Positions 22,518 through 55,950 are shown, counted from the first letter of the stretch. The stretch is 64,000 nucleotides of DNA from Octopus sinensis (GCF_006345805.1 NC_043012.1:18290001-18354000), one strand, 5' to 3'. The notes: generated from the letters alone by a model not told the origin. Translations and numbers: made by a program.

Positions 22518-23110
22518 GTCGGCGAGCTGGAAGAATCTGTTGAAATGCTTAGCTGCATTTTGTCTGCCGCTACGTTCTGATTTCAAATTCCGCCGAGGCT
22601 GACTTTGCCTTTCATCCTTTCGGGGTCAACTAAATAAGTACCAGCTACGCGCTGGGGTCGATATAATCGACTTAATCCGTTTGGCTGTCCTTATTTGTCT
22701 TCTCTGTGTTTAGTAAAGAAATAGGTATTTCATCTCCCGTTACGTTCTGAGTCCAAATTCCGCCGAGGTCCACTTGCCTTTCATTCTTTCAGGGTAGATT
22801 ACATAAGTATCAGTTACGCACTTTGTCGAGCCATGATTATCTCCCTCTATGTTTAGCACCTTGTGGGAAATAAAGAAAAAAATATTATTTATCACCATAA
22901 TGCGACGAGCAGGAAGTATCGTTAGCACGCTGGGCAAAATATTTACTGCATTTCGTCTCTCTTTACGTTCTGAGTTCAAGTTACACTGAGATCGACCTTA
23001 AGTCTCCTTTTATGGTCGATATATTGCATACTAGCTGACAACTGTGGTCAACATAATTGCTGCCCTCTCCCACGAAATTACTGCCCTTGTGGCGAAATTT
23101 CAAACCAGTA
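22518..23110 (+). mobile_element. Tandem array of three MetaSINE-like SINE units
   Basis: Unit 1 spans 22518-22723 (tail B ...tagtaaagaaata). Unit 2 spans 22724-22880, starts internally at ggtatttc and ends in tail B (ttgtgggaaataaagaaa). Unit 3 spans about 22901-23110 and is an older copy with tail A. Confidence 0.85.
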
Positions 23111-23181
23111 TTATTTCTCATACGAAACAAATGTGATAAATAAATTTTGTATGCTGCAATTTAAACATCTAAAAACCTCTA

Positions 23182-23485
23182 GAGGTGAAGGCGCAAGGCT
23201 TAGGACATTCAACTGACGATCGTAAAGTAGTGAGATCGATTCCCGTGTGTGCGATAACACCCTTTAGCCAGATATTTTATTTTACATTGCTTCAGTGCAA
23301 TCAGCTGGTAAAAATTTGTTATATTTGTAATTCAAAGGAGCCAGCCATTTTACATTGTCTCTCACTGAAGCTCCCTGTTAACTACCGCGTCGGTTGCTCA
23401 GTCACTTGCGCGTTATTTTCACGGGCTGTTCCGTTGTTCGGATCAACTAGAACGGTCATCATCGTAACCGACGGAGTACCAGTTT
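23182..23485 (+). mobile_element. Degenerate tRNA-derived SINE (different family)
   Basis: Box A-like start (ggcgcaaggcttagg) and box B-like gagatcgattccc, about 300 bp long. Confidence 0.45.
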
Positions 23486-24261
23486 ATAGTAGCCTACCCA
23501 ATATATTTCAAGACGTAATCTGAATTCGTTGTTTTAAACCAGTGTTTGAAGTGTGCGTAAAATCTCGTTAGGTCAGTGTATTGCCTCTGGATATCATAGC
23601 GAAAGAAATCCAATTAATCCTGTTAAGCGGTTGACGCAGTTTGATATTGAAGTATATTCAATATATCACTGGTATTGCAAATTCCTTGCGTATCATTCAA
23701 ACAGCATTTCATTTAACAGCATTGTTCTACATTCTTGAAATAAATACCTTAGCGGAATATAACTTTTAACTGTTCATCGCTGTCGCATTGGTACTAATTA
23801 GAAATAACTCATTTTGAAATAGCTAGATTAATCGAGATGATATAAAGGTGGTGATGTCGATATCTAGAAAAAGAAAATGCGATGCAGTGTTTAAGTAGAG
23901 CCTCTCTTTGAGAGATTTAGAAATAATATTTCTATTTCTTGAACAATAGCTGTGTGTCACTTTGAAAACTATATGTTCGAACGATGAATTCAGCAACGCC
24001 ATCTGGTCAAAACAGCTACCATGTGTTGATAAAGGGCAATAACCGAGAAACTCCGCCACAGATGTTTTGTGCTAGATGGAGTGCTGGGCTACATGTTCGA
24101 AAACGTAAGGATACAGATAGTGTGCCGTGTAGCTAGAAATGATATTTCTTGGGGCTAAAACAAGAGTTAGATCGTCTGTTTCGGGACAGTCACATCATGT
24201 TGGCAAATAGCCATTACTCGCTCTTTCCCCCTCCCTCCTCCCTATCTCTCTCTCTCTCGGA

Positions 24262-24299
<38 letters not shown>

Positions 24300-26189
24300 A
24301 CGTATATAGCATATCACTTGCCTTAATTGTTTTGACCTGACAATCGGACTCTTATGCGACTGGTCACAGTCTGCCTACAATTCTTTCATTATTTCGCCTT
24401 TTTGCATCGTCACCAAAATCGTTTTTCTATCCACATTATCTTTACATACATATGTGTGTGTTTGTGATGTGTCTATATATAGTTACAAATATGTATATGT
24501 GTGTGTGTACGTATGTCTATGCCTATGCAAATATTTCGAATCAAGACGTAGTCTAAATATCTCTCTTCGCATAAGCCTACACCTTATCAGGCATTGTACA
24601 TTTTGTTTCCACTTATTCAAAATGACATATGAGGTCATATCTAATAATTAACGCAAAGAAAAAAAACCGTACTGTAGCCGAGGATAAAACCTTAGTCTTT
24701 AATACATAAGGTGTCTGTGGAAGATATATTTCAATGTCTGTTACTCAAATAAGTTTCTTCATTTGACCATTAGAAATTTCCGGGGAAGTATATACCATGT
24801 ATATATTATGTAAACATATACCATGTATTTATTATATTATGTAAATATATACCATGTATATATTTTTTCGGGGAAGGTATATACCATGCTCATCTATGCT
24901 CATTGCTTCACTACTTAAGTCGCGCAAAACAAAAGTACACTTATTAAATTATGAGAAATGCACACCTCAAATAGAAATGCTCACTATTTTCAAGGTATGC
25001 TGTAGTTTTCCAATTTCCTTAAAGCTGTTACATTTTGGGCATGCAGGATATAATGTTGCCACATGTTCTGACCAAATTGAATTAATTTCCATTAATTTGC
25101 GCATTATTCATTCAAACCTCGAGCATTTCTGGCGTCAGGATATGATTAACAAATGGATAACTCGACTTTGACACTCAGATTAAATTTCTGCATGTACTCA
25201 TTACTATTAATCAAGGCTATATTAGTCTTCTTCACCAATCATTCAATTTTATGTTATATCATTTTACATTCCCTAAAGTCTTTGCGTACGATTTTTTCCA
25301 TGATTCTTTATAGAAACATATACACGCAGTCAGACAGACGTTTCTGCTTTCAAATGATAGCATCTTACTTCGACTTCGACCTACTTTATGCCGTGTGAAT
25401 GCCGATATCTTCCAACCAGGGTGCTCTAAGATTTTAAAACTTTTGTAAATAAACTTATAATAATGACCAAATTTAAAACACCTTGTAATTGTTTTTTATG
25501 ATGTACAAAGATTTTATATATTTTTTAAAATACCACTGAATAGATTTATTTGCCATTTCTCCTCAGGTTAAGATGTAGAATGTAATGAGGCGACTTTTCC
25601 TTTCCTGTAAATTTAGAGTGTTTCCCGTATTAGCTAGGGCCCCAGTGCAGGAAGTGTTCCACCATAACAAGTTTCAATAAAATAGATATGCATATATTTT
25701 CGACGATACTGACATTATTTATACTGTATTACGTTTCCATTACGTTTTTTTCGCTTTATCTCGCGAAATCTCGTAAATGTTCTCCAAAACTTTATAGTCT
25801 TATAATCTTCCGTGTGCTGTTCCTTATTGAAGCTTATATAAAATATCTCCAACAATACATAGAACTAATGATGAACTGACTAATTGTGAGTACGACATAA
25901 AAGACATGACGCTATAAAATCACGTAATAATGAGGCTTAATTAATACATTATGCATTAAAGGTTATCTCTATAGAAATTAGAGCCAGTACTGACTTTTGC
26001 TACTGTGTTTCGTATACGAGACGTGAGATGTAAACAAACAATGATATGGTACATGAAGAACAGGTAATGGACATATATGCCATTTTTCGAGGTGCTTTGT
26101 CTCTTCATCAGCACCAAGTTCCATCGTTTATCGGTTCTGGGATGATATGACTTCCACGTTTGACCTCTCCAGAGCGACAGCTTTTGAAG

Positions 26190-26445
26190 TTGAAATCCCA
26201 ACTGAGATGGAATGAAATGAAAAGGGCAACGGTAGGTCGGACATCAGCATCAGGATTTTCATAAAGAAGAACTTGTGAGTAATATGTTGCTGTGGACACC
26301 CACAACAGATGGAAGACCACGGAAGACATATATACAACTGCTTGCAGAAGATGTTGAATGCCAAGTTGAAGACGAATAGAAGACCGTGAGGGATGGAGAG
26401 AGGTAGTCAGGCTGGCCTGAGCAATTAGCGTGACTGGATGATTCC
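26190..26445 (+). pseudogene. RTE-clade LINE 3' end
   Basis: KEELVSNMLLWTPTTDGRPRKTYIQLLAEDVECQVEDE..DREGWREVVRLA contains the GRP..T..D and DR..WR C-terminal motifs of RTE ORFs. Confidence 0.7.
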
Positions 26446-29026
26446 TCGATAAAGAAAACAATAAAGCAGCACCCATCTAACCTATCTAACCATCCTCGGA
26501 CACATTGCTTAAATATCCACTATATCTAGTAGTGTGTAGTTATTGGATATACCAATTTACATATTAAACGCATTCCTGGGAGCCTCTACGTAAATACTAA
26601 TGGCTTGCAGCTATGCAATATATCGTTATGCTATATTATAGTATAGTATATTAAATGTGATAGCAAAATTCTCGATAGCATACTTTACAGTATACTATGT
26701 TTACATAACGAAATACCAAGGACCTACAAGTCATTAATGCTTAATCGAAAATGCTGACTACAAGCATTTCGTACGTTTTTATGTTCTGAGTTCCAGCTTC
26801 ACCGAGATCAACTTTGCATTTCATCCTCTCAGGGTTGATTAAGTAATTACCAGTTAAGCACTGGGATCGATTAAATTGATTGACCCTCTTCAATATTTCA
26901 AGGCTCGTGCTTATACGTGTTCATCTATTTGTACTCTGTCTGTGATAAAATGAAAATATATTTGGGAAAACGGTGCAAGTTTTTCAGTTCCGTATGTGAT
27001 GTCTGACAGGAAATCTAATTTTAAAAAGAGTGACATATTTTCCAGAAGACATATTTTTTTTCTCAAATATTTATATTTTTACAAAGTTTCTATTCAGTTG
27101 TACGTATTGTGCTCTCTCCATGCAACATTAATTTTAAAGCTAGAATATATCCACTATTAATATCAAAGATGTAACCAATTTTTCGATTGATACATCCGTT
27201 CACCAACTCAACGGGTTTGAGCTTGATAATCTTTTGTAACGGTATCAACAGTTAATACACTTGGTGATGTCAATATAGAAGTTTATATGGTATCCTAAAA
27301 GCAACAAAACACTGCATCTAAATATTCTTCTTCGATCGTACGCTATCTTCTGTATCCACCAAGTGAAACCTGATATTATCTACAATATAAATACACGAAG
27401 GTAAAAAAAGGTTACTACTATTTCCTGTATACGAGAGAAATATTTCAACACAATACATCTTTTTATATACAACGCTCACCATGATATATTTTATTCAAAT
27501 AATAGTCACGAAAACTACATTTATAAGGAAACCATTACTGTGCTCTCAGTTCTAAATAAAACGCAAACTATCCTATTGAGAGTACTCGGTAGGTGCTCTT
27601 CTGTAATCGTAACTCTTTGCATCCATGTTCCTGATTTGTCACTCATGTATTCATATTTTTTTCTGTAAATACTGCTCCAAATAATTAATTCTTCCTTATA
27701 TTTAGCTGCTGTGATGTAGAAACTCTTGAAATACACTAACCGCTATATTCTATGGATCCATCCTGCGGATATAAATAACGTACAAACACTAAATATGGAA
27801 TTCGTATGCATGCCTCTTTGATATGATGCAACACGACTTGCATTACACAATTTCATCGCGTGTTTATACGCCGTTCACAAATTAGTCAACATTTTACAAA
27901 ACGCATGCAATTGCATATGAAATAAATTTTAAAATTTATTCTATAGAATTAATATAATATTATTTTCACTGTCAATATCAATTTTATATTGTAGTTAAAA
28001 AATGATTGATTGCTAGATACCGGAGAACTTGTGCTGATAACTTGAATAAAAATAACTTGAATAAAAATAAAACATAATTTATTATCAGCAAAACGTAAAA
28101 TATCTCATATCCGTTAAGGGAATTAGTTTGGAGCAGAGATCAAAAACCTATTATATTAACTAACTTTAGTTGTCGTAATCAATGTATTATCATCGTCAGT
28201 ATCAACTTTTTTTTCAAAATTAACTCCGGTTAATACAGAACCCCATACAACTGACGTAGAAAGAAAATGTGGCTGAAAACGAGATTATTTTGTTTCTTTT
28301 ATAGTTCATGAAATTAATCCCTATCTCTGACGATTAACTCGCTCTTTCCAACGAAACGCTATTCTTCAATAACGATATCATCGTTATATGCAGTCCGTTC
28401 GTTTTAATGTTATTTGTCTTTCTAATTATGAAATATTCCGCTCCGAGCTTCATTTGCTTTACGATGTGATACTTCCTGAGCTCCTCCCTGCTTCACGAGA
28501 TATCTCATAATTCAATGGATGCTTGCGTTATCAGAAAGTCTTTGTTTGAAGAGATTATGGTTTGCACAAATTAATCTCGAGTACTGTATCCGTTCGGAAC
28601 CTAAAACCTAAATATTATCATTTTCACATATTTGCAAGATTCCATCAAACGCCCGCTTTTCCACACTGCCTTCCATAATAATCGTTAATTAAAAGAAAAT
28701 GGTCTAAATTCAACCGCGCGAGTTTTACGTCTCCCTATTCAATAACTTACAAATTTATTGCATTTTTTGCACATTCAATTTAAGGGGAACTGCACGGGTT
28801 TGATTCAGCTCTACCAAAATTGTGGACGGCTTCCATTGCTGTGGTGTAATGAGAAATAAACCTAACAAAACATGTGACATATCAGTCCATGTTATGAAAA
28901 AGACTTAATGCAATTGTAACCTTAATTTAATAACTACATTAATTAATACTGTGGAGAAGAATTAAGACGTGCCGACGTTCTTTAATAAAATACAATACAC
29001 ATTCCTATATTTATCACTCATTGATA

Positions 29027-29236
29027 CAAGAGTGTTCTGAAAAACTCCTGGCTTTAAAGTTCTCGCGAAAGGCCTGGTTTGATGCCCAAACTTCGTTTAC
29101 AAAGCTTTGAAAAACTAAAGGACCGTTGCGATAAGTGTGTGAATGTGAGAGGGGAATATGTTGAATAAAATCAAAATTAACTGATCCTCCTGTAATTTCT
29201 TTTACCCAAAGCCAGGACCTTTTCAGCACATGCTCA
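29027..29236 (+). mobile_element. Internally deleted mariner (MITE-like, 210 bp)
   Basis: TIRs caagagtgttctgaaaaactcctggcttt and aaagccaggaccttttcagcacatgctca, flanked by TA. The interior encodes the mariner C-terminus DRCDKCVNVRGEYVE*. Confidence 0.85.
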
Positions 29237-29921
29237 TATATTCATTTAAGTGAGATCAATATTTTTTCCAAAGAGAAATAATACATTTTTGTTAGGCGGC
29301 AAGAGAGAGTTCCAAAGCCATCAATCTTCTGTAAAGGGAATACCCCAATCTACTTTTAGTTAATTTTAGTTTTCTATGGCCATCCTTAAGTGGTCTCACA
29401 TAAGGAATAAGAGCCTTCAAACAATGATTACCTAATATTATTTAATCAATAACTACATTATTCAGTGTTTCTTTCTATTTAATTTTTAAGTAGGAAGATG
29501 GTATTTAAGAAAACGAAAACCTGCTATTTCTACCTGGTCTTGCACGCTTAGCGATCTAACCTCATTGTATTCTTCCACTGTGAACATATGTAGGATATTT
29601 ATTAATTGTTGTCATCGGTGTTTTTGCAGATGATATTGTTCTCAATACCTTGTAGGTTAAGCAGAATTATTGGTATTTTACATTTAGGTAATATGTAGAA
29701 GACACATATTTTAACATGCATCATATATTATAGAAAACCAACTCATCCTTAAACATTCGCAAATAACAATCACCTGGGGGAAGGCACGTCCAATTATCCA
29801 TAAGCCACAAATAATCTAGTTATTACGTAAACGTCAAAGAGATGAGTTGGAGAACTCATTCTAAATAGTGGCAATGAAATAATAATTCTCCCTTTGAACA
29901 AAAGCCGGCAAGATCTCTCTG

Positions 29922-29963
<42 letters not shown>

Positions 29964-30336
29964 GAAGGCAAACAGCTGATATTCAAATAAAATTATCATC
30001 ATCTCGGTAACATACGGTGAATTGAAACGTGGGTTAATTTAAACTGCGTATGCAAACAATATTAAGGCTATTAAATGATTTCGGCAAAAGCATATCAGTT
30101 TTTGCATTTAAGCGTCTCTCCACTAGCAAAAACAAATTCTCCACATCTTCACACATGTTTTTTTTTCCCTACTACGGATGCTTTACTGAGAAGGTAGAGC
30201 CCGTTGGACAGAGAAAGATATAATAATCTTCAAGAGGTATTTCTAAGGAACATGCTCCGAGATATTTCTTCGAATATTACACAAAAATACATAATTTTCT
30301 AATGGTGAACATAAACAGCTTCAACATTTGAATATC

Positions 30337-30384
<48 letters not shown>

Positions 30385-31292
30385 TGTGTATATATATAAA
30401 TACAAACACACACGTGTATATATGTATATATATATATATATATATGTATAGTTCTAATTGATATCGTATATTTGTTGTCCAAAATGAGATATAAAGGATA
30501 TTTATTAAGACGAATATTGATATTTCCCCCTGAAGCCTGATATCCTTATACAAGAAATTGTTATGCACAGGAAATATTATATATGCAGTTTTCCCGGAAA
30601 TATAATTTTTCGCTTTAGAACGCGCTGAGCCAGAGAAAGAAAACAGCACATCATTTAAAATCAGATCAAGTTTATTGTGGTTTTGGTTTATTTTGGTTTT
30701 CGGCTGAAGACCTGCTTGATCGTATTATTTTTTCAACCATCATGAATTTTAACTTTTTTGTTTTCAATGGACAAATTCGACTGAATATTTTTTTAAAAAA
30801 ATTGTTTTACGTTGCTTTCCATTATTGCCTTTCTTATTATATAGAGTCAAATTTCATCACATTTTCTTTTTACTGTGTTTGTTCAGCTTTGAGCAAAATA
30901 GTTGGATTTATATATGGAGAGTAAATAATAGTACACTTCAAGACAAACAAGCAAACTTTCAAAGTTTACAGCGAAAGTTTATTTATATCTCACATTCCCG
31001 CATATGTGGTGAATTAGCACGTACATATAACTGCTTCTCTTTTTTTTTTTTAAATATGCATTACTTTAATACATGTAATGATACAGATTGTATAAGATAA
31101 TGTTTTGCTTAGTAACGCATGAGTAAACGTTGTGATTTGGCATGATTTTCTATTGTATTCTGTTGATAGTTTGAAGCTGGTGACATTGTCAGAGATTAAT
31201 GGACATAGAAAGAAAGGTTCAAAATTACACACACACATGCACACACACAAACACTCACACACATGTATGCATATATATACTCACGCTATGTG

Positions 31293-31362
<70 letters not shown>

Positions 31363-31383
31363 TCTGTGTGGTTGTAAATGTAG

Positions 31384-31438
<55 letters not shown>

Positions 31439-31847
31439 ATAATATATATATATGCATCAGTGACTGTATGTGTATATATATATAATATTACATGCACATA
31501 GGAATGCATGGATATATTATGGTATTACAATGCGTTTGGCATTACATTAGACATATTCGAAACTGAAATATCTTTGTGGAATCTCGAAAATACGAATAAA
31601 AATATGTGCCTTTTAATATACATGTAGATAATGTATAATTATACCTGTACGCTCATACACACATTTACACAAATTCCAACATATATACTTATGCATGTAG
31701 ATACATACATGCATATATATACATGCATATATATATATGAAGCATACATATAGATCTATGCATATATGTAGATACACATATACACATACATACATATATA
31801 TGTGTGTGTATATGTATATATATATATTTCTATAGCATATGTATATA

Positions 31848-31881
<34 letters not shown>

Positions 31882-31963
31882 TATATACACATATACACAC
31901 ACACTCATATATATATACATATATATTTATATATGCATTAATATATGCACATATACACACACG

Positions 31964-32019
<56 letters not shown>

Positions 32020-32099
32020 CCTTAAATCCTTAAATCGTTAAAAATGTTTTAGCCGCGGCCTTCGGGCTACAACATTTGTAAGGATTTAAGGATTTAAGG
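32020..32099. mobile_element. 80-bp foldback mini-element (MITE-like) inside (TA)n
   Basis: Termini ccttaaatccttaaatcgtta and taaggatttaaggatttaagg are inverted. The interior pairs aaatgtt/aacattt and tagcc/ggcta. Confidence 0.7.
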
Positions 32100-32105
32100 A
32101 TATAT

Positions 32106-32200
<95 letters not shown>

Positions 32201-33208
32201 TATATATATATATAAATATGATAGGATGCAGAAATTAGCACTGGATATACATCTCTAACATGTATATTAATGCGAGACATTTATCAAATATATGAAAGCA
32301 AGATAAAGCAATAAGTATCATTTTATTTCATAAAATTAATATACCAGCTGACTACGTTAATACAAATGAAAAACATAAAGAGCGCCATCTTGAATTCGAC
32401 AGCGATTTCCCCCTGTAAATGATTGACAATATTTTTCGAATTCTGTTTGATTTAAATGGAATTGAAATGACTCCATTGAGATTTAGTAGAAGATTTTCAA
32501 TGTATATGTAGATGAGTCAGCCCTTTTGATGAAGTGTCACTTTATTTTCCTTCGTATTTTAAAGTTTTCTTCCATATACAAGAACTAAGAAACTGGGGAA
32601 TATGAAACAATTTTCAATCGGTCATCAACAGACATATCCATACACATACAGTGACACAAATGTATAAAAGGTACTTGCAGTGATATATGTAGGTATAACT
32701 ATATGTGTGCATATAAGTATATGTACACACACGCACACATACATACATGTATACGTACACATATATAGGCATACCAACAGGTATACGCACACATATATAG
32801 GTAAACGAACATATATCAATGTAAACCTGAATGCGCATTAGAGGAACAATGATACATACATACATCCTTACAGATATAGGCACATATATTCTCGCACACG
32901 CACATATGTATATATATATAACATGCATATACATAAATATATAAATATATGTACATATAAGTATGTATATATTTATATAACTATATATATATATATACAC
33001 ACGCATATATAGATATAGACAGATATATACATGTCTATATACATACACACATACATATATATATACATATATACTGGCATATACATATATATATATATAT
33101 ATATATAATATATATATATTACATGTGAAAATATACATGCATACATAAATATATATATATACTCTTTATATATACATATATATAGACATACATATATGTA
33201 TATATATA

Positions 33209-33263
<55 letters not shown>

Positions 33264-33298
33264 AATCTGTACATATATGTATCCATATATATATATAT

Positions 33299-33349
<51 letters not shown>

Positions 33350-33617
33350 CTTACATATATATATGCATATATATATATGTGTAATTTATGAATGTACGTA
33401 TATTTTCAAATGTAATTTCGATTGCGATTACATATTTTTGCTCTGCCACACAGAAATACATAGTATTTGATATCATATATAATATAGCTAGTTGTGATTG
33501 TAAACTCATTGTTGATTTATTGAGATATATTACACCATTTTGCTCCACGTTCTGTTCAGACGTTCCCTTAAAAATACTCCTTGAAACAATGAAATAAAAT
33601 CAGGCCTGGACAATGTG

Positions 33618-33690
<73 letters not shown>

Positions 33691-33721
33691 TATATATATA
33701 TAAACAAATATATATATATAT

Positions 33722-33754
<33 letters not shown>

Positions 33755-33809
33755 AATAGATAGATAGACAAACACATATGTATATATATATATGTATATA
33801 CGCATGTAC

Positions 33810-33849
<40 letters not shown>

Positions 33850-40656: not shown

Positions 40657-41544
<888 letters not shown>

Positions 41545-41610
<66 letters not shown>

Positions 41611-41612
41611 AT
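41545..41612. repeat. (ATCT)n microsatellite, 3' flank of LINE copy 1
   Basis: Read directly. Confidence 0.95.
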
Positions 41613-41615
41613 CTC

Positions 41616-41994
41616 TCTCTATATAAACGGCAGTTTGTCTGTGCGTGTTTCTGTGTGTCTGTTTGCTTGTACCCTCACCCTAACCACGGCTTTCAACCGA
41701 TTCTGATGAAACTTGACACACCCATAGCCCAATGTCATAATTCAAAACTAACGCAGCGACAATTTTGAAAAGTTCCCCCAGTTCTGAAAAGAATCGATAA
41801 ATTCGACATGGGGTCGAGAATCAGAAACACAAACCGCAAACTGTCTAGGGGACGCAACTCCACCTTTTTTTACTCTCAAAAAAATTTACCATCATTTTTT
41901 TCCATTTTTTTGCTATTTTTTGGCTATAACCCTCCAAAAATGCTTTATAGTTATTTCCCTTACAAACCTGAGCAACGCCGGGCGATACTGCTAG
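41616..41994 (+). mobile_element. Non-autonomous Helitron
   Basis: 5' TC(T)ATATAAA start, GTCT/GTGT-type simple repeat, aaccgattctgatgaaacttg motif typical of non-autonomous Helitrons, 3' hairpin cctgagcaacgccggg, then CTAG (41991-41994) followed by T. Confidence 0.85.
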
Positions 41995-42011
41995 TATATA
42001 TATATATATAT

Positions 42012-42864
42012 CTGCGACATCTCAGGCTCTTCGTAGATGACGGTGAACAGGTGTGGTCGCCGTTTGTGAGGCACGCTTTCCCGCAGCTCATCTCCATGAC
42101 TGAACTGCAATCGTGGATCAAAAAGAGGCCAAGGAAGGGCGAATGGCACCGCGAGTGACGCATTGCTCTCAAGTAACTCTGCCGTCCTGGGTCAACCTTG
42201 AGTGACTCCATCACAACCAAAGCATTCTATAGGGGATTAGTGGAGGGGAGGTACGACGACGAGCTCAGGGCGAACCTAGACGTCGACGAGGAATACATGA
42301 CCCGCCTTTTCGGGACGACTTTCGGGCCAGGGCCCATGGACAACTTCCAGGGATCCCTGGCCTGGCAGTGCTACCGAGAAGCGCTACCTGTTCGGGATAA
42401 GCTCTACAGACACGGCTCGAGAAACACGGGACCGACCTGCCCAAGATGCGGTCAGAGCGATGAAACCGTTCTGCCCGCACTGGTGCAGTGTCCAACAATT
42501 TCCGACCTGTGGGCTTATGTCGAACAACTGCTGTCACGTGTGGGACGAATCGGTTTATCAGCTGAGTCTATCGTCAATATTGTCACGCCTCCTTCCTTCA
42601 AACGGGAAGGAAGAGTTATTTTCATCATCCTTGTGGCTATGGCGAAAGAATGTATCTGGTGGACGCGTCTGAAAGGATTGGAGACAAACACTTTCCTCTC
42701 TGGTCAATCTCTCATCAACTTCTTCAAGTACCACTTGAAAAGGAAAGTGAGAGTAGAGAGGCAAGTTTTGTCTAGCGAATGTTTTAAAAAAAGATGAGTG
42801 AATGTAGCAAGAATGGCACATATGAATGACGAAGCCACCTTGAGCATGATCCTATGAACCCAGA
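42012..42864 (+). mobile_element. L1/Tx1-clade LINE copy 2: truncated at both ends, defective
   Basis: Near-identical to 63134-63985; CCHC region CPRCGQSDETVLPALVQC; in-frame stops. It starts after (TA)nTC and ends 7 nt after the ORF2 stop position, before (TA)n(TCTG)n(TCTA)n. Confidence 0.92.
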
Positions 42865-43024
42865 TATATATATATCTGTCTGTCTGTCTATTAATCTGTC
42901 TATCTATTTATCTATCTGTCTATTATTATCTATCTATTTATATACCTACCTATCTGTTTGTCTGTTTATCTATCTCTCTGTCTGTCTGTCTGTCTGACTG
43001 TCTATCTATCTATCTATCTATCTA

Positions 43025-43061
<37 letters not shown>

Positions 43062-43162
43062 CTATCTATCTCTCTATCTATCTATCTATCTATCTATCTA
43101 TCGATCTGTTTATCTGTCTGTCTATCTATCTATCTATCTATATATCTATCTATCTATCTATT
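42865..43162. repeat. Degenerate (TA)/(TCTG)/(TCTA)n microsatellite
   Basis: Read directly. Confidence 0.9.
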
Positions 43163-43380
43163 TGAAGTTTTTCAGTCGATGAAATCATCGTAATATTTTA
43201 TATTTTCAATGGTTGATAATTATTATGGCATTATCATTTGAAGAACTGTCAAGTGGTGAGAGAAAAAATATACACACACACTTGCATAACATATATGTAT
43301 ATATATATTATATATATATATATATTATATATATATATATATATTATATATATATATATTATATATATATATATATATTA

Positions 43381-43601
43381 TATATACCAATTAAGGACTG
43401 AACACGAAAAGTGGACAGTCAACATGCTAGATATAGACGTCAAATCGCCATTCACCACAAAAGATTATGTTCTCAGATCAAACTCAACACAGTGTTGAGT
43501 TTGATCTGAGAACATAACCTTTTGTGGTGAATGGCGATTTGACGTCTATATCTAGCATGTTGACTGTCCACTTTTCGTGTTCAGTCCTTAATTGGTATAT
43601 A
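43381..43601. repeat. 221-bp near-perfect palindrome (110-bp arms, 1-nt spacer)
   Basis: 43381-43490 is the reverse complement of 43492-43601, with a single mismatch (43464 A / 43518 C). Confidence 0.97.
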
Positions 43602-43679
43602 TAAATATTTTAATCTTCGGATTCTTTTTTAATATGCTAGACCACTGGTCTTAATGATAAATATCAATTTCTACCCTTA

Positions 43680-44915: not shown

Positions 44916-44919
44916 TGTT

Positions 44920-45217
44920 GAAGGAAACACCTATATTTCCAGAGGTGACTATTTCTAACCCCAAAGAATCCCTCTCAACACATGGGTATGTTACACCCCC
45001 ACTACTTCTGCTCGTGATCAGAGATGCACATATCGTCAGTCACTAAGGGACATGCTCAACTGGTTATTGTCAAACAACCGACAAGCAAAGCTGTGGTATT
45101 GAGCACAATATTTGCTGTAGCCCATCTTTTATATCAAGACAAAACAATTACATGATAACACTAGTAATCAGTTACGGCCAGACGCCACGAGGGCCACTGC
45201 TTGTACTACATCGGGGA

Positions 45218-45257
<40 letters not shown>

Positions 45258-45290
45258 GTTGTTGTTGTTGTTATTATGATTATTATAAGG
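44920..45290 (+). mobile_element. Unclassified retroposon 3' end terminating in (ATT)n
   Basis: Non-coding, relatively GC-rich segment that abruptly replaces the maT 5' end and ends in (att)n/(gtt)n. Class is inferred. Confidence 0.35.
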
Positions 45291-45904
45291 GTCTTTTTGA
45301 TTCTCTCTACGAAACATGTTTTATCTAAATGTTGCCCAAATAAATTTTCATTGCAGTAATTATAAAAAGAACTATAATTCACTTGAAAGAAGCTGCTCAT
45401 TTATCTAGCTCCACCCCGCGCCCCCAGAATTTAGATTAGGAAAACGAACTTCGTTTCACAAACTTTTAAAATAGTTGTTTTCAAAAGCATTACATATTTA
45501 CAACCAAGATACTTAGCACAATCAGTTATACTGCACGGCAAACCACTCTATTGTTGCGGCATCTGTGTTATGTGTGTTGGTGCAATATTATTTGCGTGAA
45601 AAGTTATGGATGGCAATTGCGCCGAACTATATGCAGTGTCAAATGTGTTGCATTATTGATTGCCAGTTGCCTAATCAGCGGAGGAACGGCATGGCCCAAC
45701 ATCCTTCATTTCTTTTCTGACTAATGAAGAGAGAGGAGTGAATTCTAGTTTTATCATGGTAGTGGCGTATTGTTTGCAGCTATATAGATCCCGCTAAACC
45801 TTCGTGATGGTTTTCAACTGGACGACGGAATCTGTGTGCTTTTTTAGTGGCAGTTTCATATAATAAAATGAAAAGAAATGTCTTTCTTATATCATTTATT
45901 AGGT

Positions 45905-45955
<51 letters not shown>

Positions 45956-47337
45956 GACACTTCGAAATCCAAACATATGACACACATTTTCTAAGCAAAG
46001 ATTCTATTAAAGTAGACGTACTTCTTATTTAACAAGTATTAATCTATCAACTATGGAAATATAATAGTTAAGTAATAGTTAATGAATATTCCCCACAGGA
46101 TAGCAAGGCATTTAAAATATCTTACAGATTCCATTAAACTACCAACGATTCACAAATAATATAATACGAAGTCGCAATGAATAATTCAGGATACTGCTAT
46201 TTCGAATTTCTTTTGTAGATGATTTAAAATATTCATGATTCAAAACAATGAATTATATACAGGTTTTATGAAATCAAAGCTGGTTTCAAATCTAGCTGAC
46301 GCCGCACAATTTCATTGTCAAAGGAAAATACTCCAAATATGTTTGTGGTATCTAAAAATCAAATCTGATATTTCAAAAATGTATCTATAAGTTAGAACCG
46401 AGTTGACATAGCAATGCAAAAGGTTTCATAGATATGTCGCTTAGCAAATTCCTAATAAATGAAACAGGCTTAGAAAGTAATTTTATCCTCAGAGAATAAA
46501 CAAAATATATAATAACGTTATCTCATTAAAAATGCTACCTCCGGAAAGAGCAGTAACACCAACAACAAAATCAACTACAATTAGTATGACCAAAAAATTG
46601 TGAGGAGATGATGAAAGGAATCTTTCCTCTTGAAGTTCATTTTCCCATCTCTCAAGAAGGTAAACAATGAGAAGAAAGAGAAAATAACTAAACACAGAGT
46701 TTTGCTAGGGTTTTGATGAATCTCATGTAGGAAATTAAAACATCAATAAAGCCGAATAGCTGCAGCGATTAAATAAATCATTGTAAAATATAAAGAAAAG
46801 AAAATAAATATGAGAAAAAAAGAAGAAAAAAAAAACAGAAGTTATTTCTGTAATTGCGTTCCAACTACCTCTGTCCATCTTTTTTTTTCTTTCTCTTAGA
46901 ATGAAAGGATTGATAGAATGGAGAAAAGGATTCCACATAAAGATTGTTGACGATAAGTCGACATACAAGAATAATACAAGGTACTAAAACAGTTTATTGA
47001 CAAATGTCAGGAATTGTAAAGAACGCCGGATCAATTATATATAGCTATGACCTCAAACAAATAAACCAGCTAATCTTTGCACCGTCAAGAGTGGAAGTAA
47101 CTGTAGAGGGCATAGATAATTTAGCATTACAATGAAACATGAGAAATAACTACAAGACAAAAATGCGATTCTACAAAACATGGAAGCTAACATTCAAAGA
47201 GAAACCATTTGGGCAAGGAAGTGTGTCAGTTACGAATAATTTTTTGTTTGCTTTCTTTTTTTCTTTAAGCAAAACAAAGATCTGAAAATAGAATATTATA
47301 CAAACACGAACTCTATATGAATTCTATAAACAATCGA

Positions 47338-47423
<86 letters not shown>

Positions 47424-47657
47424 ATATATGTATATATATATATATATATATCTATAAAATACATTTATATGTATGTATAAATGTATATATACGCATATAT
47501 ATATATACATACACTGCACAGCATGTATATGTGTTGTATATTTATGCGTGTGTTTGTGCACGTGTGTATATACGTATATATGTATATACATGTATATATA
47601 TATATATACATACATATATATACATATATACATGCATACACACATACACACATACAT

Positions 47658-47733
<76 letters not shown>

Positions 47734-47949
47734 GTCACGATAGGACAAAAACATATCTGTACTTTAAAAATAGGAGAAAAGAAAATAACGTTATTGATCG
47801 CGACTGTGAGAAACAAGAGATACATTACATTTATTTTTACAGTAAAATTCGTGATTGACATAAAGAAATTAAAATACAAACTGAAACGGACATCATGATT
47901 TTAATGATGGTGACGATGATGATGACGATAAAGATGATGATGATGATGT

Positions 47950-47995
<46 letters not shown>

Positions 47996-48536
47996 AAGGA
48001 GCGGTAGGAGGAGGTGCAGGGGCGGTAAGGAAGTTGGAGGCGTATACAAAGATAAGAGTAGCCTGTAAGGAAGGCGATAATATTGCTGCGGTAAAGCACA
48101 CAAATAATGCTGGCGCTATGACGGAGAACAGACTACATTGTTAAACGTAGCAGGGGAATCGTGGGAAAGAAATAAAAAAAAGGTAAAGCATTAAGTCAGA
48201 GGTTGGAAGGAACAGAAGAATGAAGAGGAGATAAAGAATGAGATGTCATCCATCAAATTCGAAGTACAATACATGAATCGGTTTCTATAATTATCGATGA
48301 TTTTTGCTGTAGTCTGTCTATATTCGTTTTCGTTGTTTGCACTCTGATATGATTCATCAATGTAAAGACAAGGGTAAAAGTTTGAGCTGATATTTTCACT
48401 TAGAAATTTTTACAAAAAATTTTCAAATATATGGGTACCCTGCAGGAACTCTTAAAGATAGAGATCTTTTCGTTACATATTGTCTTTCTCTCAAACTTTC
48501 TCTCATTGTCACCCTACATATATACATAAATGGATG

Positions 48537-48590
<54 letters not shown>

Positions 48591-48941
48591 CATGTGCGAG
48601 TATGCGCTTGTGTTTGTGTGTGGGTGCGTAAGTGTGTATGTTTGTGTATGTGCGTGCGTGTGTGTGTATGTGATTGTAATGTGTGTGTTTGTGTAGATAT
48701 ATATGTCTCTACGTTCGTGTGAACTGCATCTATCAAGATATTTTTGCTTGTTCTTCACTAAGTGTTCATGTACGTATGTGATTTTTATTGTGTATATATA
48801 GGCGCAGGATGGCTTGTTTACCAACCGCGTGGCACCTTGGGCAAGTGTCTTCTACAACAGCCTTGGGCCGACCAAAAACTTATGAGTGGATTTGGAACAC
48901 GGAAACTGAAAGAAGCCCATCGTATATATATATATATATGT

Positions 48942-49660
48942 AGCATAGTAACTGATTCACAAATACGACTAGAGCAACCCCCTTCCTTAAACTAATAGAA
49001 AATGGAATCACAAGAGCATTGGAACTAGACATCGCACAACACAGGACACCTAAAACAAAAAACAAAGAAAACATTATCCCTTTTATAAACACGCACAACC
49101 TTGGAGTTACCAACCATACATTTAAACCTGCCAATAGCCTTACAAAGCCCCAAAATGAAAAACATATTAAACAAATATAGCATAAAAAACAGTAGACGAC
49201 AGGGCAAAAACCTAAAGAAACACCTAACAAGAGCGAAACTAAAACGGAATTCTTTGCAAAAGAGTGCGGAGATGGTAGATGTGGGATCTGCAGCAACCCC
49301 ACCTACAAATACATAGAGGGAAACAGAGAGATGAGATTTAAAAGTGGTTACGTATTTAAGGTAAATGCAGATATGAACTGCAAGACGCAGAACGTTATAT
49401 ACTGCATAACCTGCCCCACGTACAAGGAGGATTACCAGGTGAAACTGGTAATTCTTTGTGCCAGCGAGCCAGCATTCACCGACAACATGTTCGGCAGGAA
49501 GAACTAAGCAAGATACCACGAAGTACACACCTAGCTACGTGTGGAGAAGGAAAGTTTAAGATCTTTCTCTTCTACAAATGTTCGAAGAACGACACCTCTT
49601 TCAGGAGGAATATGGAAAAATATTTCATAGCTAAGTTCTCCCCCAAATTAAATGACTGAA
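48942..49660 (+). mobile_element. Penelope-like element (Neptune-type) C-terminus: zinc finger plus GIY-YIG endonuclease relic
   Basis: KNSRRQGKNLKKHLTRAKL; KCGDGRCGIC; FKVNADMNCKTQNVIYCITCPT; RASIHRQHVRQ...RRNMEKYFIAKFSPKLND*. Begins after (TA)n. Confidence 0.85.
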
Positions 49661-49679
49661 ATTTTACTCATTCATACAT

Positions 49680-49937
49680 TGAAGGACATATCTTTTGATT
49701 TACAATGTAATATAGTAGAACATTTAGTATATGTGTGTATATGTATATATATGTGTGTATATATATATATTACCTGTTATATACATTATATTATTTTTGT
49801 AATTTACTTAATCTTTACTTTTTAATTGTCATTTTAATTTTAACTTTCCTATGATATGCAATTTTCAAGATGGTGGAATTTGATTGATCATTTTGAATCG
49901 ATAAAAGGTGTTTTTTTCTAATATTTCATGTATAAGC

Positions 49938-50000
<63 letters not shown>

Positions 50001-50050
50001 CAATGAAGGACACATCATTCGATTTACAATTTAATATAGTAGAACATTTA

Positions 50051-50103
<53 letters not shown>

Positions 50104-50285
50104 GGTGTATATTGCCTGTTATATACATTATATTATTTTTGTAATTTACTTAATCTTTACTTTTTAATTGTCATTTTAATTTAAACTTTCCTATGATATG
50201 CAAGTTTCAAGATGGTTTAATTTAATTGTTCATTTTGAATCGATGAAAGGTGTTTTTTCTAATGTTTTATGTATAAGCATGTATA
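49680..50285 (+). repeat. Tandem direct repeat of about 270 bp (49680-49945 and 50003-50285), pseudo-LTR-like 3' region of the PLE
   Basis: Both copies run tgaaggaca..gatttacaat..aatatagtagaacatttagtata ... gtataagcatgtatata and are separated by (TA)n. Confidence 0.9.
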
Positions 50286-51022
50286 TATATATATAGTGGA
50301 ATAAATATCAACACAATTTTTCCCCTTCCTCCCAATGCACATACTTGTTTGCATTGTCTATGAGGTGCCTTTTTTTCTCTCTTCCCTTCTCCAAACTCAC
50401 AGACACCCACACACGCACACAAACACACACGGACACACACACACACCTCCACAAAACTTTCATAAAAAGTGGAAAGAATTCTTAAACCCATTAAACACAC
50501 ACACAGTCTCTCACAATGATAAAAGGAAATATAATTTATGACCTACCTCCCCGCCACCACACACTCAATGACACTGTGAAATGGTCAAAACTGAAATTCT
50601 TTCTTTGTTTCCAAGGCCTTAGAAACCCCTTGGAGTCAATACTCTGTCCAGCAGACCAAAAAAATATTTTTCTTCTCCTTCCCTCTCCCTTCCCCTCTTT
50701 TTCTTTAGCACTCACCCCAGATACAAAAACACACACACACACACACACATACACACATATTCTCTCTCTCACTTTCTCCTCATCCATCACTCTCTTGTAC
50801 TGTCTTATATTCCTCCCCACCACTACAAACTATATAAAATGTTCAAAACTCCTCACACAGGAACTTAGTTTGATTTGAAAACCCCACTAGAATGGGAGAA
50901 AGCGCTAATGATCTAAGTGATATGATATATATATAAAAATGTAATATACAAATAAATATCTGTAAATATAAACCATCCGATCTTCTGAGTACCTCATTTC
51001 TTCTAATATATATATATATATA

Positions 51023-51090
51023 CTAGCTGAAGGTGACCCGCTCTACGCGCGGGTAAGTGTGTGGTTGTTACTTTCTGTTGCTTCCTTTCA
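51023..51090 (-). mobile_element. Helitron 3' terminus
   Basis: Minus strand: hairpin acccgc-gcgtaga-gcgggt (51036-51054), then caccttcagCTAG followed by T of (TA)n. The 5' end was not located. Confidence 0.7.
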
Positions 51091-51401
51091 GCACGTAAAA
51101 AGCACCATCCGAACGTGGCGGAATGCAGCGCCGCCTTGACTGGCTTCTGTGCTGGTGGCACGTAAAAAGCACCAACCGATCGTGGCCGCTGCCAGGACCC
51201 TTGGCACCTGTGCCGGCGGCACGAAAAAGCACCCACTACGCTCACAGAGTGGTTGGCGTTAGGAAGGGCATCCACCCGTAGAAACACTGCCAGATCAGAC
51301 TGGAGCCTGGTGCAGCCTCCTGGCTTCCCAGACCCCTGTCAAACTGTCCAACCCGTGCTAGCACAGAAAACGGACGTTAAACGATGATGATGATGATGAT
51401 T
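51090..51401 (+). mobile_element. SINE/LINE 3' portion with RTE/Expander-like tail and internal repeats
   Basis: Three gcacg(t)aaaaagcacc repeats, ggttggcgttaggaagggcatcc, and a terminal aacccgtgctagcacagaaaacggacgttaaac(gat)n. Confidence 0.7.
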
Positions 51402-52029
51402 CCCCCTCTTTGTTTCTCTCTCCTTTCTCTCTCACTCTCCCACTCTCTTACTCTTCCTTTCTCTCGGACTCGCTTTCTCTTACTCTCTATCTTTATCTAT
51501 CTCTCTCCCATTTATAAACAACAAAAGATCTTGAGTAAGTTGAGAAATAAAATATTTAGAAAGATCAATCATAAATATCAGGCAGTAACAACGGAAAGGT
51601 CTGCTTGAAGGCAGACAGCAAAACACTATCTCTGTCACACTCATACGCTACACATGCCTTTCTCGCTTGTTTTCCATGCTCAGTGTGCCCTTGTAAACAC
51701 AACTCATCTCTGTAAGACCCTAGGTCGGTCACGCATACATAGAGAAAGTTGTTTGTCCCTTACAACGCGCCAGCATGCCACACTTTTGTTCCTGCACGAC
51801 CGAGGCATATAATAACTCAAGCACTGGCTGGCAGCCTCAGGCTTACCGCATTAATCACTGGGATATTCAATACTGTACACTGTATTTCAGCCTAGCAAGC
51901 CCTATTGCACTCATGCACCTCTTTTCTGCACGTGTACTCCCTTGTTTTGCAACACGTCTGCGTCAGCTCAATTCTTCTCCCGACTCAAAACACTTCGGAT
52001 GTTCACATGCGCTGCGCTCAACGGTTATC

Positions 52030-53720
52030 TGAAGGAAGGAGGGTTGGCATTTGAAGCTGCATTGGTTTGTAGGTGGTGTTACGGATGAACTTGTGAGGGG
52101 ATTGCTATTTAGTGAGGTATCGGTGTTAGGTTCGTTATTCATTCTAGCGTTAAGATAAGTATTTGTTAAGGAGTTAATGAGTTAATTTGTTAAGGAGTTT
52201 TGTCGGGATTGTATAATAAGATAGTTATTGTGTCTCATGGTATACCGTGTTGTTCTCTATTTTTACAGGAGTTGTTGTTGAGCGCTGTGATAAACTTAAA
52301 GATTAGGTATTAGCAGTGGATTTATAGTTGGGATTATGAGGGTTAGTATTGCGAAGAGGGCTGATTGGTGTTTTACATTTATATGTATAGAGCTGGGGGT
52401 TATGTTGAGTTAATTTATTAGGGTGGATGTTAGATGGCTGTCGATTGCTAGGTTTCTTGTCCATAAAATGTCGGATAACTCTGGCAATGCTGGTGCTGGA
52501 TGAGTAGGAACATTTCATAGATGGGAGGTTAAATATGTTTCTAAGGAGGCTTGTTTTAGGGAAATGATTTTTGGGCAAGGCGAAAAATGTTTGGGTGCTT
52601 CAGTCTGAAAGTTAAGGACGAAGGTGGAAGCAGATTATGTCACGGGTTCTATTTCGTTGAATCCGATAAGGTGGATTACCTGAATGGAGATAGGGTTTTG
52701 GAGGTTATGCTGGTGTTTGTTTCAGTGGATTATGGTGTATGTAGGATTTGGGGGTCATCTGGTAGGGGGTTATGTTTATAAAATGGGCGTGCGGAACTGC
52801 TTTCTGTTCAGGGTTTAATGGAGAGAGGAATATCCAACATGGAGAGACATTCAATTGCGTATTTATAGTCGGCACATTGTAGGGTACAATTGTAATATTC
52901 AGTATATTGATAGAAAACTATTTATTAGCACATAGTGAGGAGATCCGGTAGGAAACGCTTTCCACAATAGACTTTAGGACGGAAAGGGGGCTGCAGGAGA
53001 AGTTCACGTAGTGGAGGTTTTCCTCAGGTTTAGGATATGGGTCGAATCTTTGGTTTTGCAAGACCAGGGTTACATTTTAGAAATTCACAGTTTTCATGTT
53101 GTTACTGAAGGATACGCTGAGGCCGACATTTAAAAACAATATCTTCTAAACATTTCTGTAATCGGTTCGATTTTTCGGTTGCTAGAATTTTAGATTGTGA
53201 ACAGAGCATCGTCTCTCTATAGATCACTGGAGATGTTAAGAAATCTTTTATAGAGACCTTTACGTTGGTAGAGTCCTATGCTGTCAGTGACTTGGCCGTA
53301 GTCACTTGCTCCCATGGGGATGTCGAAAAATTGGGTCTATCATTGCGGGTCCAGGATTTTCCATCAAATTGTATGATATTTCGGCTGGCTGCTAATATAA
53401 TATCAAAATCGTCGCGTGATAGGTTGGAATACTTTTTGGCGAAAATTAGGGCCTTATTGAGATTAGAAGTGCTGGAATTGTATTGATCAATATCGACTTG
53501 ACATGCGTCAACATGTACATCCTTATGACAATGTAGCTTTTAATTTAATCCTTGACCTCAAGAAATGCCAGCGGTATGCATCTCGCTTGGATGTTTCCCA
53601 TCTTTGAGATTCCACCCGCTATGAAACATATGTAGCCTGGATCTTACTGACTACACTCCGTAACTTTTGTATTCCTATTCGCACTCCGCAGCACTGGTCA
53701 CCTAATGTGAAATATATAAA
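52030..53720 (-). mobile_element. Penelope-like element reverse transcriptase relic
   Basis: Minus strand: VDIDQYNSST (FDI..YPSI-like), FDIPMGASDYGQVTD, YR/DDAL (YxDD, frameshifted, about 53205-53222), and HFPKTSLLRNIFNLPSMKCSYS (the HFP..L.KIFN..K.SYS motif of PLEs). Confidence 0.75.
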
Positions 53721-55617
53721 GAACTTTTTTCCGCTGATTGTTCTTCGATACGAAAAAAATCAACAATCTTCCGTCTCAATACAATTGTCACTGAATGTTG
53801 TTTTTATTGTATTTACTACAGATTGCTTGAGGCTAACTTTATTCCTATACCTCGATCATTGGATCTTACATTTTTATATGTGTATGTGTGCGTTTTGTGT
53901 ATGTGTGTGTTATATTCAGGGTGTGTTTATGTGTGAATATTATAATTAATACTGGAGTAGTTACTAAGTTGATTCGAGATTCTTCACAAGACAATGAGTG
54001 ATTTGTTTATTATATTGGCTGCAAATTTATCTACGTCTATTTATATATCTCTTTCGAGCGACAGTTGTCCGTGTTTCACTTTACATTGAGAAATACGATT
54101 ACAATTCTGCATTTCTATATTTCCCATAGCAACGAATATATTCCAAATTACTTCAGAACAAATTCATTCCTCTAATCAAACACTGATGCACTTGTATGGA
54201 TACTGCCTTAAGCTTTCAAAATAATAGTTCCATTCATAATTTTTGATACATCTATTGCAGTCAACCTTAATGTTTCATTGGTTGTTTATACATCAGGTGT
54301 TATATATGTTTTTTTATTATTTCATATGGAGTACATATAAATCGCTTTTGTTTATTATTTCATCGATAAATGATGCACAAATTTGCATGCATGATTCATA
54401 GAGAGACTTACATAATGAAACAACCAAAACATGTATTTACACACTTATATTCATTGTTACGTCTTCTGATACGAGTAATTTGTGTGTGTGCATGCATGTA
54501 TTACACAGACATATATATAAGCTATCACATACAGACACGTATACACACATATATACATATCTACACAAACTCACACACACACACACACATATATATACAT
54601 GTATGTATGTATATATGCCATTCAGGTTATTTCCAGGTTTATCGCCAACAGAGAAAAAAACTGTTTCTAATCTAGATACAATTTCTTTCATTGGGGCATG
54701 TATGTATGTATCTATGTATGTATATGTGTTTGTCTGTGTATGTGTATATGTATGAATGTATGTATGTGTGTTTGTCTGTGTATATCTATGAATGTATTTA
54801 TGTGGATGAATGGAAGGACAGACGGGTTTTTGTATGAATGGCTGGTTGGATTCATATAAATTTGGAACAAAGATTGTAAATTTGTGATTCACTGCGAATT
54901 GTGTTTGGTATTTCAAACTTCTATTACCAAGGTTACTCAGGTTTACAATTCCATCATCCAACTAAAATTTCTATTTTGTAATGTTGCTTGCCACTGAATT
55001 GAAACCTAGACGAGTCTACATTGGTTTATGTATTAATCTCCGTCTTGAGGTCGGTACCCTGTATGCATATGCTTCGGATATAAATTTTATCCTAATCGGA
55101 ATTCATCCTAATCGGAACCCTTAGAATTCATCACATGAATAGGTAATATGAAATACTTTTACGCACCTTATGTTTATCAAACCAGTTTTCCGGGCCGTGT
55201 CTCTTTACTAAGAGGAACTGCACAATAGTATGATAAATTATCTTTGCATCGTATCGAACGAGAGTTACGTTCTGGAAAGTAATGCTTCACTATACAACCC
55301 GCTGAGTGAGATACCAGATTCCGGTGTCTTTAATTATATCGTTACTGTTTCATTTCAGTGGATTCAGTAACTTATAAATAATAGAGATAAATCACAATAT
55401 ATTTAAAATTCCGTCCAGGTGGGTTTTGTCTGTAGGATATGAGAAATATACCTCTTAATTTTATGTGCGTATCTTGTTTCATTTGTTACGTATTGCCATC
55501 GTAAAACATAAAGTGAACTTACATGCGTTCATAACCGTGATAAACTGCATATGTATGAGCTTGCATAGTAGTGAGGGATCATCTGCAATCGTTTTACGCT
55601 GTATCTGGTGTTATTTA

Positions 55618-55950
55618 TTTATTCTTTTCTACTATAGGCATAAGGCCCAAAATTTTGGGGGAGGTGGCAAAGTCGAACTCGGATGAATTTAAACTTAGAA
55701 CGTATTGATAGACGGAGTACCTATTTCTTTACTACCCACAAGTGACTAAACACAGAGGGGACAAACAAGGACACGCAAACGTGTTAAGTCGATTACATTG
55801 GCCCCAGTGCGTAACTGGTACTTGCTTAATCGACACCGAAAGGATGAAAGGCAAACTCGACCTCGGAGGAATTTGAACTCAGGACATAACGGCAGACGAA
55901 ATACCGGTAAGCGTTTCGCCCAGGGTGATAACATTTCTGCCTGCTCACTG
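55618..55950 (-). mobile_element. Two-unit MetaSINE-like SINE: full unit with tail B joined to a partial unit with tail A
   Basis: Reverse complement: head...core...ttgtgggtagtaaagaaata|ggtactccgtc...cgactttgcc..cccccaaaattttgggccttatgcctatagtagaaaag. Junction at 55722/55721. Confidence 0.8.

Follow-up and report, generated by a model that had tools for sequence, protein, structure and literature searches.

Tandem short interspersed elements of Octopus sinensis joined at one fixed base, with a putative L1/Tx1-type partner

A 64,000-nucleotide stretch of the Octopus sinensis genome (GCF_006345805.1, NC_043012.1:18290001-18354000; hereafter the window) holds two separate loci at which the tail of one transfer RNA (tRNA)-type short interspersed element (SINE) runs directly into the core of a second. 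Our comparison of these loci with the rest of the genome indicates, with high confidence, that such SINEs and a long interspersed element (LINE) insert at one fixed base of resident SINEs. The preliminary description of the window had proposed site-specific insertion into resident copies for SINEs carrying one of two tail types (tail B), and nested loci with a duplicated target bear this out. We also weigh how chains of units arise from such insertions, with some preference for joining at the resident locus.

Architecture, junction register and nested copies

Profiles built from the window and the fetched loci divide the element into a head of 49 bp, a core of ~118 bp and either a tail B of ~65 bp or a tail A. 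Chains follow the order head, (core + tail B)n, core and tail A or B; both window loci consist of head, core and tail B, then core and tail. Several features of the SINE class are present, the element being non-coding and dispersed, with a ~230-bp monomer and tens of thousands of exact motif copies, and its target-site duplications have a median of 17 bp (10th to 90th percentile, 15-22; null pass rate 1.3%). Of a putative internal polymerase III promoter, a B-box-like motif was seen at position 75; neither our own A-box pattern nor ARAGORN gave a match, and Rfam gave no credible one. The central part may resemble the Nin/Inv domain.

The two junctions lie where they had been placed, at 22723/22724 (+) and 55722/55721 (-), and in each the next unit starts at the base that normally follows the cttagc-like end of the head; the downstream unit ends in tail B at the first locus and in tail A at the second, also as described. 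The junctions had been called identical, which holds for the register and not for the letters, these being ggtatttca at the first locus and ggtactccg (-) at the second. Counted genome-wide, as had been proposed, the 2.72-Gb genome contains 39,661 exact copies of the junction 19-mer and none of its reversed control; two classes of one-base variants add a further 7,345 and 1,652 copies, and copies are often spaced 184 bp apart. The frequency of the junction is far beyond chance, genome-wide.

Moreover, in an unselected sample of 853,800 bp, made up of the window and 79 stretches of ten kb, core follows directly on tail B in 19 of 76 B tails. The positions are not scattered, 17 of the 19 sharing one register; core follows tail A in only 1 of 55 A tails, in another register. 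The same sample contains 16 multimers, 30 full B monomers and 30 full A monomers, from which we extrapolate about 50,000 multimers genome-wide. Results free of selection for the junction come from this 854-kb sample, one 'unbiased' block and 23 junctions; the other samples were partly selected by junction or tail motif. Elements near locus edges, duplicates, irregular architectures and nine elements with short heads were left out of the counts, as were units with fewer than 55-60 aligned core bases. A second register, in which tail B is followed by head position 17, was found mostly behind C-type tails (the other variant being T-type) and is usually single-headed.

Nested loci show that insertion is targeted. 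A search for head, site, short spacer and second head gave 92 exact matches at 69 places (hand count of the list). In most of the loci listed (L112, L236, L273, L290, L292, L295, L300 and others), the order is resident head, target copy, full new element, the same target copy and the rest of the resident, and at L112, L236, L273, L290, L295 and L300 the resident's own changes stand in both target copies. Other listed loci do not fit this order, L274, L276, L281 and L296 having tandem heads and L272, L289, L293 and L298 other ends. The four tandem-head loci, together with C3430:1373-2205, consist of a repeated 65-67-bp unit of head and target copy alone, with at least 11 units in the longest listed.

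Among 122 multimers sampled by their junction, ~5 carry two heads at this site; a single head directly bordered by an outer duplication is found in 48, and neither arrangement in 59; SINE sequence of any kind lies upstream in 15 of the 122, the ~5 two-headed ones included. Overall ~95% of chains are single-headed, and the head is of the newcomer's type.

Putative partner LINE and choice of target

Tail B of the SINE is LINE-derived: in several LINE families of the genome the final 46-50 bases can be aligned with it (four LINE ends were compared), one of them being the window LINE that lies in (TATC)n. Intact relatives have two open reading frames (ORFs), ORF2 carrying Exo_endo_phos (apurinic endonuclease, APE), RVT_1 and zf-RVT domains (L340, L339); the best PDB matches of the endonuclease are L1 endonucleases, and the target duplications of these LINEs measure 15-19 bp. 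At L012 the broken 3' end of a LINE is joined directly to the start of a SINE core. Its reverse transcriptase (RT), over 115-117 residues, is 82-85% identical to 10 of 11 intact ORF2s and 70% identical to the eleventh, and its tail motif has 140 exact copies in the genome, of which 126 are followed by the SINE site, above the level of more than 20% in one target used as a criterion in PMC4494074 (in part). The protein part seen of this site-specific family is the broken 3' part in L012, the full domain set coming from the intact relatives. By its domains and 3' end the partner is placed in the L1/Tx1 group only, the Tx1 clade being putative; this agrees with the Tx1/L1-type partner suggested in the preliminary description, in that tail B is a LINE 3' end and a LINE tail family sits at the same SINE base.

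Two observations limit the case for this LINE family. L012 is the single copy among the 140 whose sequence was recognised as that of a LINE; the other 139 were identified by motif only. Furthermore, the LINE-tail junctions at the SINE site have C in 59 and G in 41 of 100 listed (hand count), and the SINE junctions have GG in 20 and CG in 0 of 23; thus the L012 family alone does not explain the site choice of the SINEs. Among LINE families, the one whose tail comes closest (26 exact copies) showed no GGTAT preference, 1 of its 13 flanks starting GGT, and no LINE partner of tail A was found among the isolated tail matches listed.

Where the insertion lies outside SINEs and its duplication was verified, the target begins GGT with 9 of the 21 T-type tails and none of the 20 C-type ones, and AGA with 1 and 4 of them, respectively (Fisher p 0.005 for GGT and AGA together). 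GGT and AGA are the starts of the two internal registers, and the start of the target tracks the tail variant. Internal positions are occupied by 31,504 of 71,143 exact copies of the T-type tail (44%) and by 749 of 21,222 of the C-type (3.5%). These data hint at RNA-guided priming, in which read-through RNA would pair with the nicked target, which would explain the tail-linked start; different LINE families active at different times would explain it also. Some LINE ends had AGAAA or GGTAG directly after them.

Other LINEs of this group drew our attention. At L344 (6657-6822 and 9744-9907, +) and L321, a LINE ends at the first base of a U1 small nuclear RNA (snRNA) gene (Rfam RF00003), possibly a U1-targeting family, of which one locus was seen. 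Full-length LINEs form head-to-tail arrays at L331, L333, L334 and L343, with a period of ~4.3-5.7 kb and the tail joined to the next 5' end. LINEs with 98-99% identical ORF2 occupy different targets (L336, L340 and L346 versus L345 and L334): three of them, on different contigs, share one exact site in a ~560-bp repeat, and another lies in a different repeat, a distribution that fits targets inherited by lineage but could be co-amplification.

Age order and origin of the chains

The divergence of each unit was measured from the consensus of its subfamily. By this measure the rear unit exceeds the front one in 88 of 116 multimers and falls below it in 23 (p 9e-11), and among the 48 single-headed multimers with an outer duplication the split is 34 to 11; on this sequence evidence the front copy is likely the younger, in line with the expectation that upstream units are younger than the terminal one. 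Rear units are similar in divergence to monomers of the same subfamily (0.135 versus 0.160, 0.075 versus 0.091 and 0.078 versus 0.086). Three pairs of rear units from different loci share at least three rare changes, 1.5 being expected among 7,021 pairs, and the subfamily of the front unit is independent of that of the rear unit (p 0.87). On both counts a single or few dimeric masters do not account for the chains; the preliminary description had argued against a single master.

Adjacent units of 2-5-mers differ by 0.10, near the 0.113 of unrelated loci, and so lack the homogeneity of SINE-derived satellites, which arrays of at least 10 units do show: their inner units differ by 0.005-0.04 (L105), 0.02-0.07 (L038) and 0 (L119). 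The longest arrays expand by local duplication, as shown by the similarity of their units. L105 (C1:30.02 Mb), L038 and L061, of 10-11 units, are homogeneous inside and have a distinct last unit, and are possible satellite seeds. A hidden internal duplication at both unit starts was considered and rejected, as the apparent excess of sharing at core 36-70 (15 of 84) spread across the core with more data. A rolling-circle or ribozyme origin is also disfavoured: an Rfam scan of 22300-23400 gave no credible match, and the units are unrelated.

As a whole account of the chains we lean, by a little, to joining in place, that is, targeting followed by 5' annealing that replaces the resident's head. 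The LINE endonuclease would nick the fixed base and reverse transcription would start at the end of tail B, priming perhaps being helped by the pairing of the nicked DNA with RNA that reads through into the next unit. The complementary DNA (cDNA), with ~65 bases identical to the resident sequence upstream, would then be joined through a heteroduplex, leaving a seamless chain under the newcomer's head, and two heads would remain in only ~5% of events. The site would be recreated at the front, and chains would grow at their 5' end, as the age order suggests, the longest arrays extending further through local duplication. Of 29 chains whose last unit is an old A unit, 3 are A-type at head position 38; the same holds for 39 of 63 old A monomers (3 of 10 if GGTAT-bearing). 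At core position 14 the A-type state is found in 5 of 27 front and 22 of 28 rear units of these chains, and at core position 16 in 3 of 29 front and 20 of 27 rear units. Head and core start thus belong to the newcomer, so that a join in place would have to overwrite the old head.

Several observations weigh against joining in place. The head shows neither a 5'-to-3' gradient nor a correlation with the age of the rear unit, and nothing of the resident can be traced in it; of the rare changes found where the rear unit begins, only 2 of 57 reappear in the front unit, so head replacement would have to be nearly complete, and at the nine nested loci scored rare changes of the upstream target copy are repeated downstream in only 3 of 10. 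Outer duplications are detectable in 36 of 55 multimers, where 33.4 would be expected at the age of the front unit and 26.3 at that of the rear, and within multimers their mismatches show no significant correlation with rear divergence (rho 0.22, p 0.13). The joint likelihood of detection and mismatches is flat, the best in-place share being 0.5, with a log-likelihood 1.7 above all-retrocopy and 0.8 above all-in-place. The 3' part of tail A is better kept in multimers than in monomers of equal core divergence, a comparison biased by a reference taken from rear units. Finally, L112 and L290 each received a whole trimer in one insertion, which shows that multimeric RNAs are mobile. The presence of outer duplications does not discriminate, because insertion in place keeps that of the resident.

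A rival that we hold to be possible, short of probable, is that read-through RNAs of nested loci, coming from thousands of loci, are retrocopied as single-headed chains. It yields newcomer-type heads without any overwriting, it takes the ~5 two-headed cases among the 122 multimers as founders, and it accounts as well for the old rear units, the 36 of 55 detectable outer duplications, the better-kept tail A and the trimers inserted whole. It requires, however, at least about a thousand roughly equal sources, given that rare changes are not shared among rear units beyond expectation. SINEs commonly have few masters (background of PMC10702118, in part). Against retrocopying also stand the rarity in the sample of young tail-A monomers, while A-ending multimers with young fronts are common, and the mismatches of detected outer duplications, 59 in 47 multimers compared with 36-38 expected at the age of the front unit and 64-66 at that of the rear. 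Joining in place is modestly favoured, its rival needing unusually many equal sources; both routes probably operate, as the trimers at L112 and L290 make likely. For the two-headed locus L235, one organism examined (C) has the rear tail and the downstream flank, in a setting where paralogous SINE contigs are abundant.

Local tandem duplication of part of one SINE, like that of reptile SINE-derived satellites, we judge improbable as the route to the chains. It is true of the inner units of the long arrays L105, L038 and L119, and in dimers 29 rare changes are common to the front and the rear unit, against 10.3 when shuffled; but in all 47 B-B dimers the two units differ by more than 0.03 (median 0.105), chains of B then A cannot result, and one register recurs at tens of thousands of loci. 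Even less credible is a template jump, in which the RT halts where the core of one SINE RNA begins and passes to the tail of a second within one insertion. This would give one head and random pairing of subfamilies, and such jumps are known for non-long terminal repeat enzymes (cited in PMC4494074, in part), but it predicts rear units derived from young active masters, whereas they are as diverged as old monomers, and it leaves the LINE at the same base and the nested target duplications unexplained. Least believable of all, one or a few composite masters making every dimer and trimer would produce a uniform junction and tail variants biased by position, but not independent subfamilies, privately diverged and older rear units, or nested loci that are fresh events. 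Age order and the unlikeness of units put all three out as the main route.

Window features, known systems and significance

The features of the window are collected in Table 1, with the loci of the second register. Locus 2 has a candidate outer duplication of 14 bp, AT-rich and with one mismatch. The window LINE at 40801-41544 belongs to a sister family of the one at the SINE site. A LINE family is present in three pieces, at 40682-43160 and 62059-64000, two of which adjoin (TATC)n runs; five other sampled tails of the window-LINE type are followed by TATC-type repeats and one by (CA)n. A Mariner-type transposase fragment (Transposase_1, E 9e-9) was detected at 17442-17834 (-), and an inverted duplication of ~110 bp with AT-rich flanks at 43380-43610, possibly a small DNA transposon.

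Table 1. Coordinates of SINE and LINE features in the window, and loci with the second junction register.
Feature	Position or loci	Strand	Observation
Locus 1, outer target-site duplication, upstream copy, 14 bp	22499..22512	+	Identical to 22881-22894
Locus 1, head, 12-bp internal deletion	22516..22553	+	Alignment to sample consensus
Locus 1, front unit, core and tail B (tail with 14-bp deletion)	22554..22723	+	Head and unit, 21 mismatches in 207 aligned bases
Locus 1, rear unit from the shared insertion base, core with deletion and tail B	22724..22880	+	21 mismatches in 154
Locus 1, outer duplication, downstream copy	22881..22894	+	Perfect 14-bp match to 22499-22512
5'-truncated L1/Tx1-type LINE inside (TATC)n	40801..41544	+	Last 50 bases align with SINE tail B
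Locus 2, rear unit, core with 67-bp deletion and tail A	55621..55721	-	15 mismatches in 99
Locus 2, front unit, full 184-bp core and tail B	55722..55905	-	Head and unit, 28 mismatches in 233
Locus 2, head, 5' end worn	55906..55950	-	
Tail-B monomer (head, core, tail B) at a TA-rich site; profile seed	56303..56527	+	
Broken LINE of the same window family	62059..64000	+	RT (RVT_1, E 4.6e-11), zf-RVT (E 1.1e-8)
Second-register loci	L010, L012, L019, L037, L051, L052, L055, L056, L074, L200, L228, L293		

The closest known system is SINEU with Tx1-Mar of crocodilians (Kojima 2015, PMC4494074, in part), likewise a SINE and a Tx1-clade LINE with a common target in another repeat. Tandem copies by sequential insertion and a partnership deduced from the common target are shared with the octopus; the target of SINEU and Tx1-Mar is however an unrelated Mariner element, and their tandem copies sandwich a duplication (same source). 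The octopus SINE targets its own family, mostly has one head without internal duplication and carries the 3' end of the LINE, so that self-targeting, seamless single-headed chains and scale set it apart. Tx1 (Xenopus, in Tx1D), Keno, Kibi and Koshi are APE-type LINEs with fixed targets in repeats, snRNA genes and microsatellites (PMC4494074, in part), and the octopus genome is alike in having LINEs in (TATC)n and at U1. It differs in that the target is a dependent tRNA-type SINE, the landing site thus being multiplied by the dependent element, and in that the Tx1 placement is putative.

For priming and joining, a model is offered by the 5' heteroduplex joining of R2 (PMC3774820) together with annealing of 3' read-through sequence (PMC6530143), and internal priming of SART1 by a short target-like RNA (PMC7265360) is a precedent for read-through priming. 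As far as the available text of these three papers goes, RNA that has target sequence at its ends is joined precisely and primes better; when R2 RNA carried target sequence from upstream, more than 80% of 5' junctions were precise and a minority had duplicated target, and changes borne by the flank of the RNA were propagated (PMC3774820). R2 differs in having a restriction-like endonuclease and a ribosomal DNA target, and in the octopus the homology would come from element and target being one family.

Squamate SINE satellites (PMC10702118) and bivalve arrays of the form TSD-(SINE)n-TSD, where TSD is the target-site duplication (PMC11481361), also have tandem units of part of a SINE, the first with a head, within one outer duplication; in the portions of these papers at hand they are described as products of amplification or recombination. 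The bivalve arrays, discussed as recombination products, make up ~3% of copies in one species and have truncated internal tails (PMC11481361, in part), whereas about a third of octopus tail-B elements are multimeric, with complete internal tails and, in short arrays, unrelated units. Octopus OR1 and OR2 are named only as CORE-SINEs in the accessible text of PMC4758252, PMC4824008 and PMC5804259, and two of the three supplementary files of PMC4824008 gave no octopus OR1/OR2 reference match; tRNA-Deu and L1-Tx1 families are listed for Octopus vulgaris (PMC13282606, in part). A literature search returned no paper on this octopod system; subscription papers (e.g. Ohshima and Okada 1994) and Repbase were outside its scope and may describe these SINEs. 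The present analysis contributes a count across the whole genome, the relative age of front and rear units, the exclusion of a small number of masters, the finding that heads are of the newcomer's type and the link between target start and tail variant.

In this system a dependent element multiplies the landing site of its helper, and dispersed SINEs are turned into ordered arrays and satellite seeds at ~50,000 loci. Such a number makes two tests possible by genomics only, one of the rewriting of upstream DNA by annealing between cDNA and target, the other of the steering of an APE-type target by read-through RNA. Rather speculatively, and with more doubt than belief on our part, the SINE may be homing-like, read-through setting the target preference of each subfamily (GGTAT through the core start for T-type tails, AGAA through head position 17 for C-type) and the new copy overwriting worn heads with a fresh promoter, which would rejuvenate tens of thousands of old copies in place; if so, target choice would be a heritable, RNA-guided trait. 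Repeat libraries that hold 'dimeric' consensus sequences would lead to wrong ages for these loci, and the front units could act as ordered time markers.

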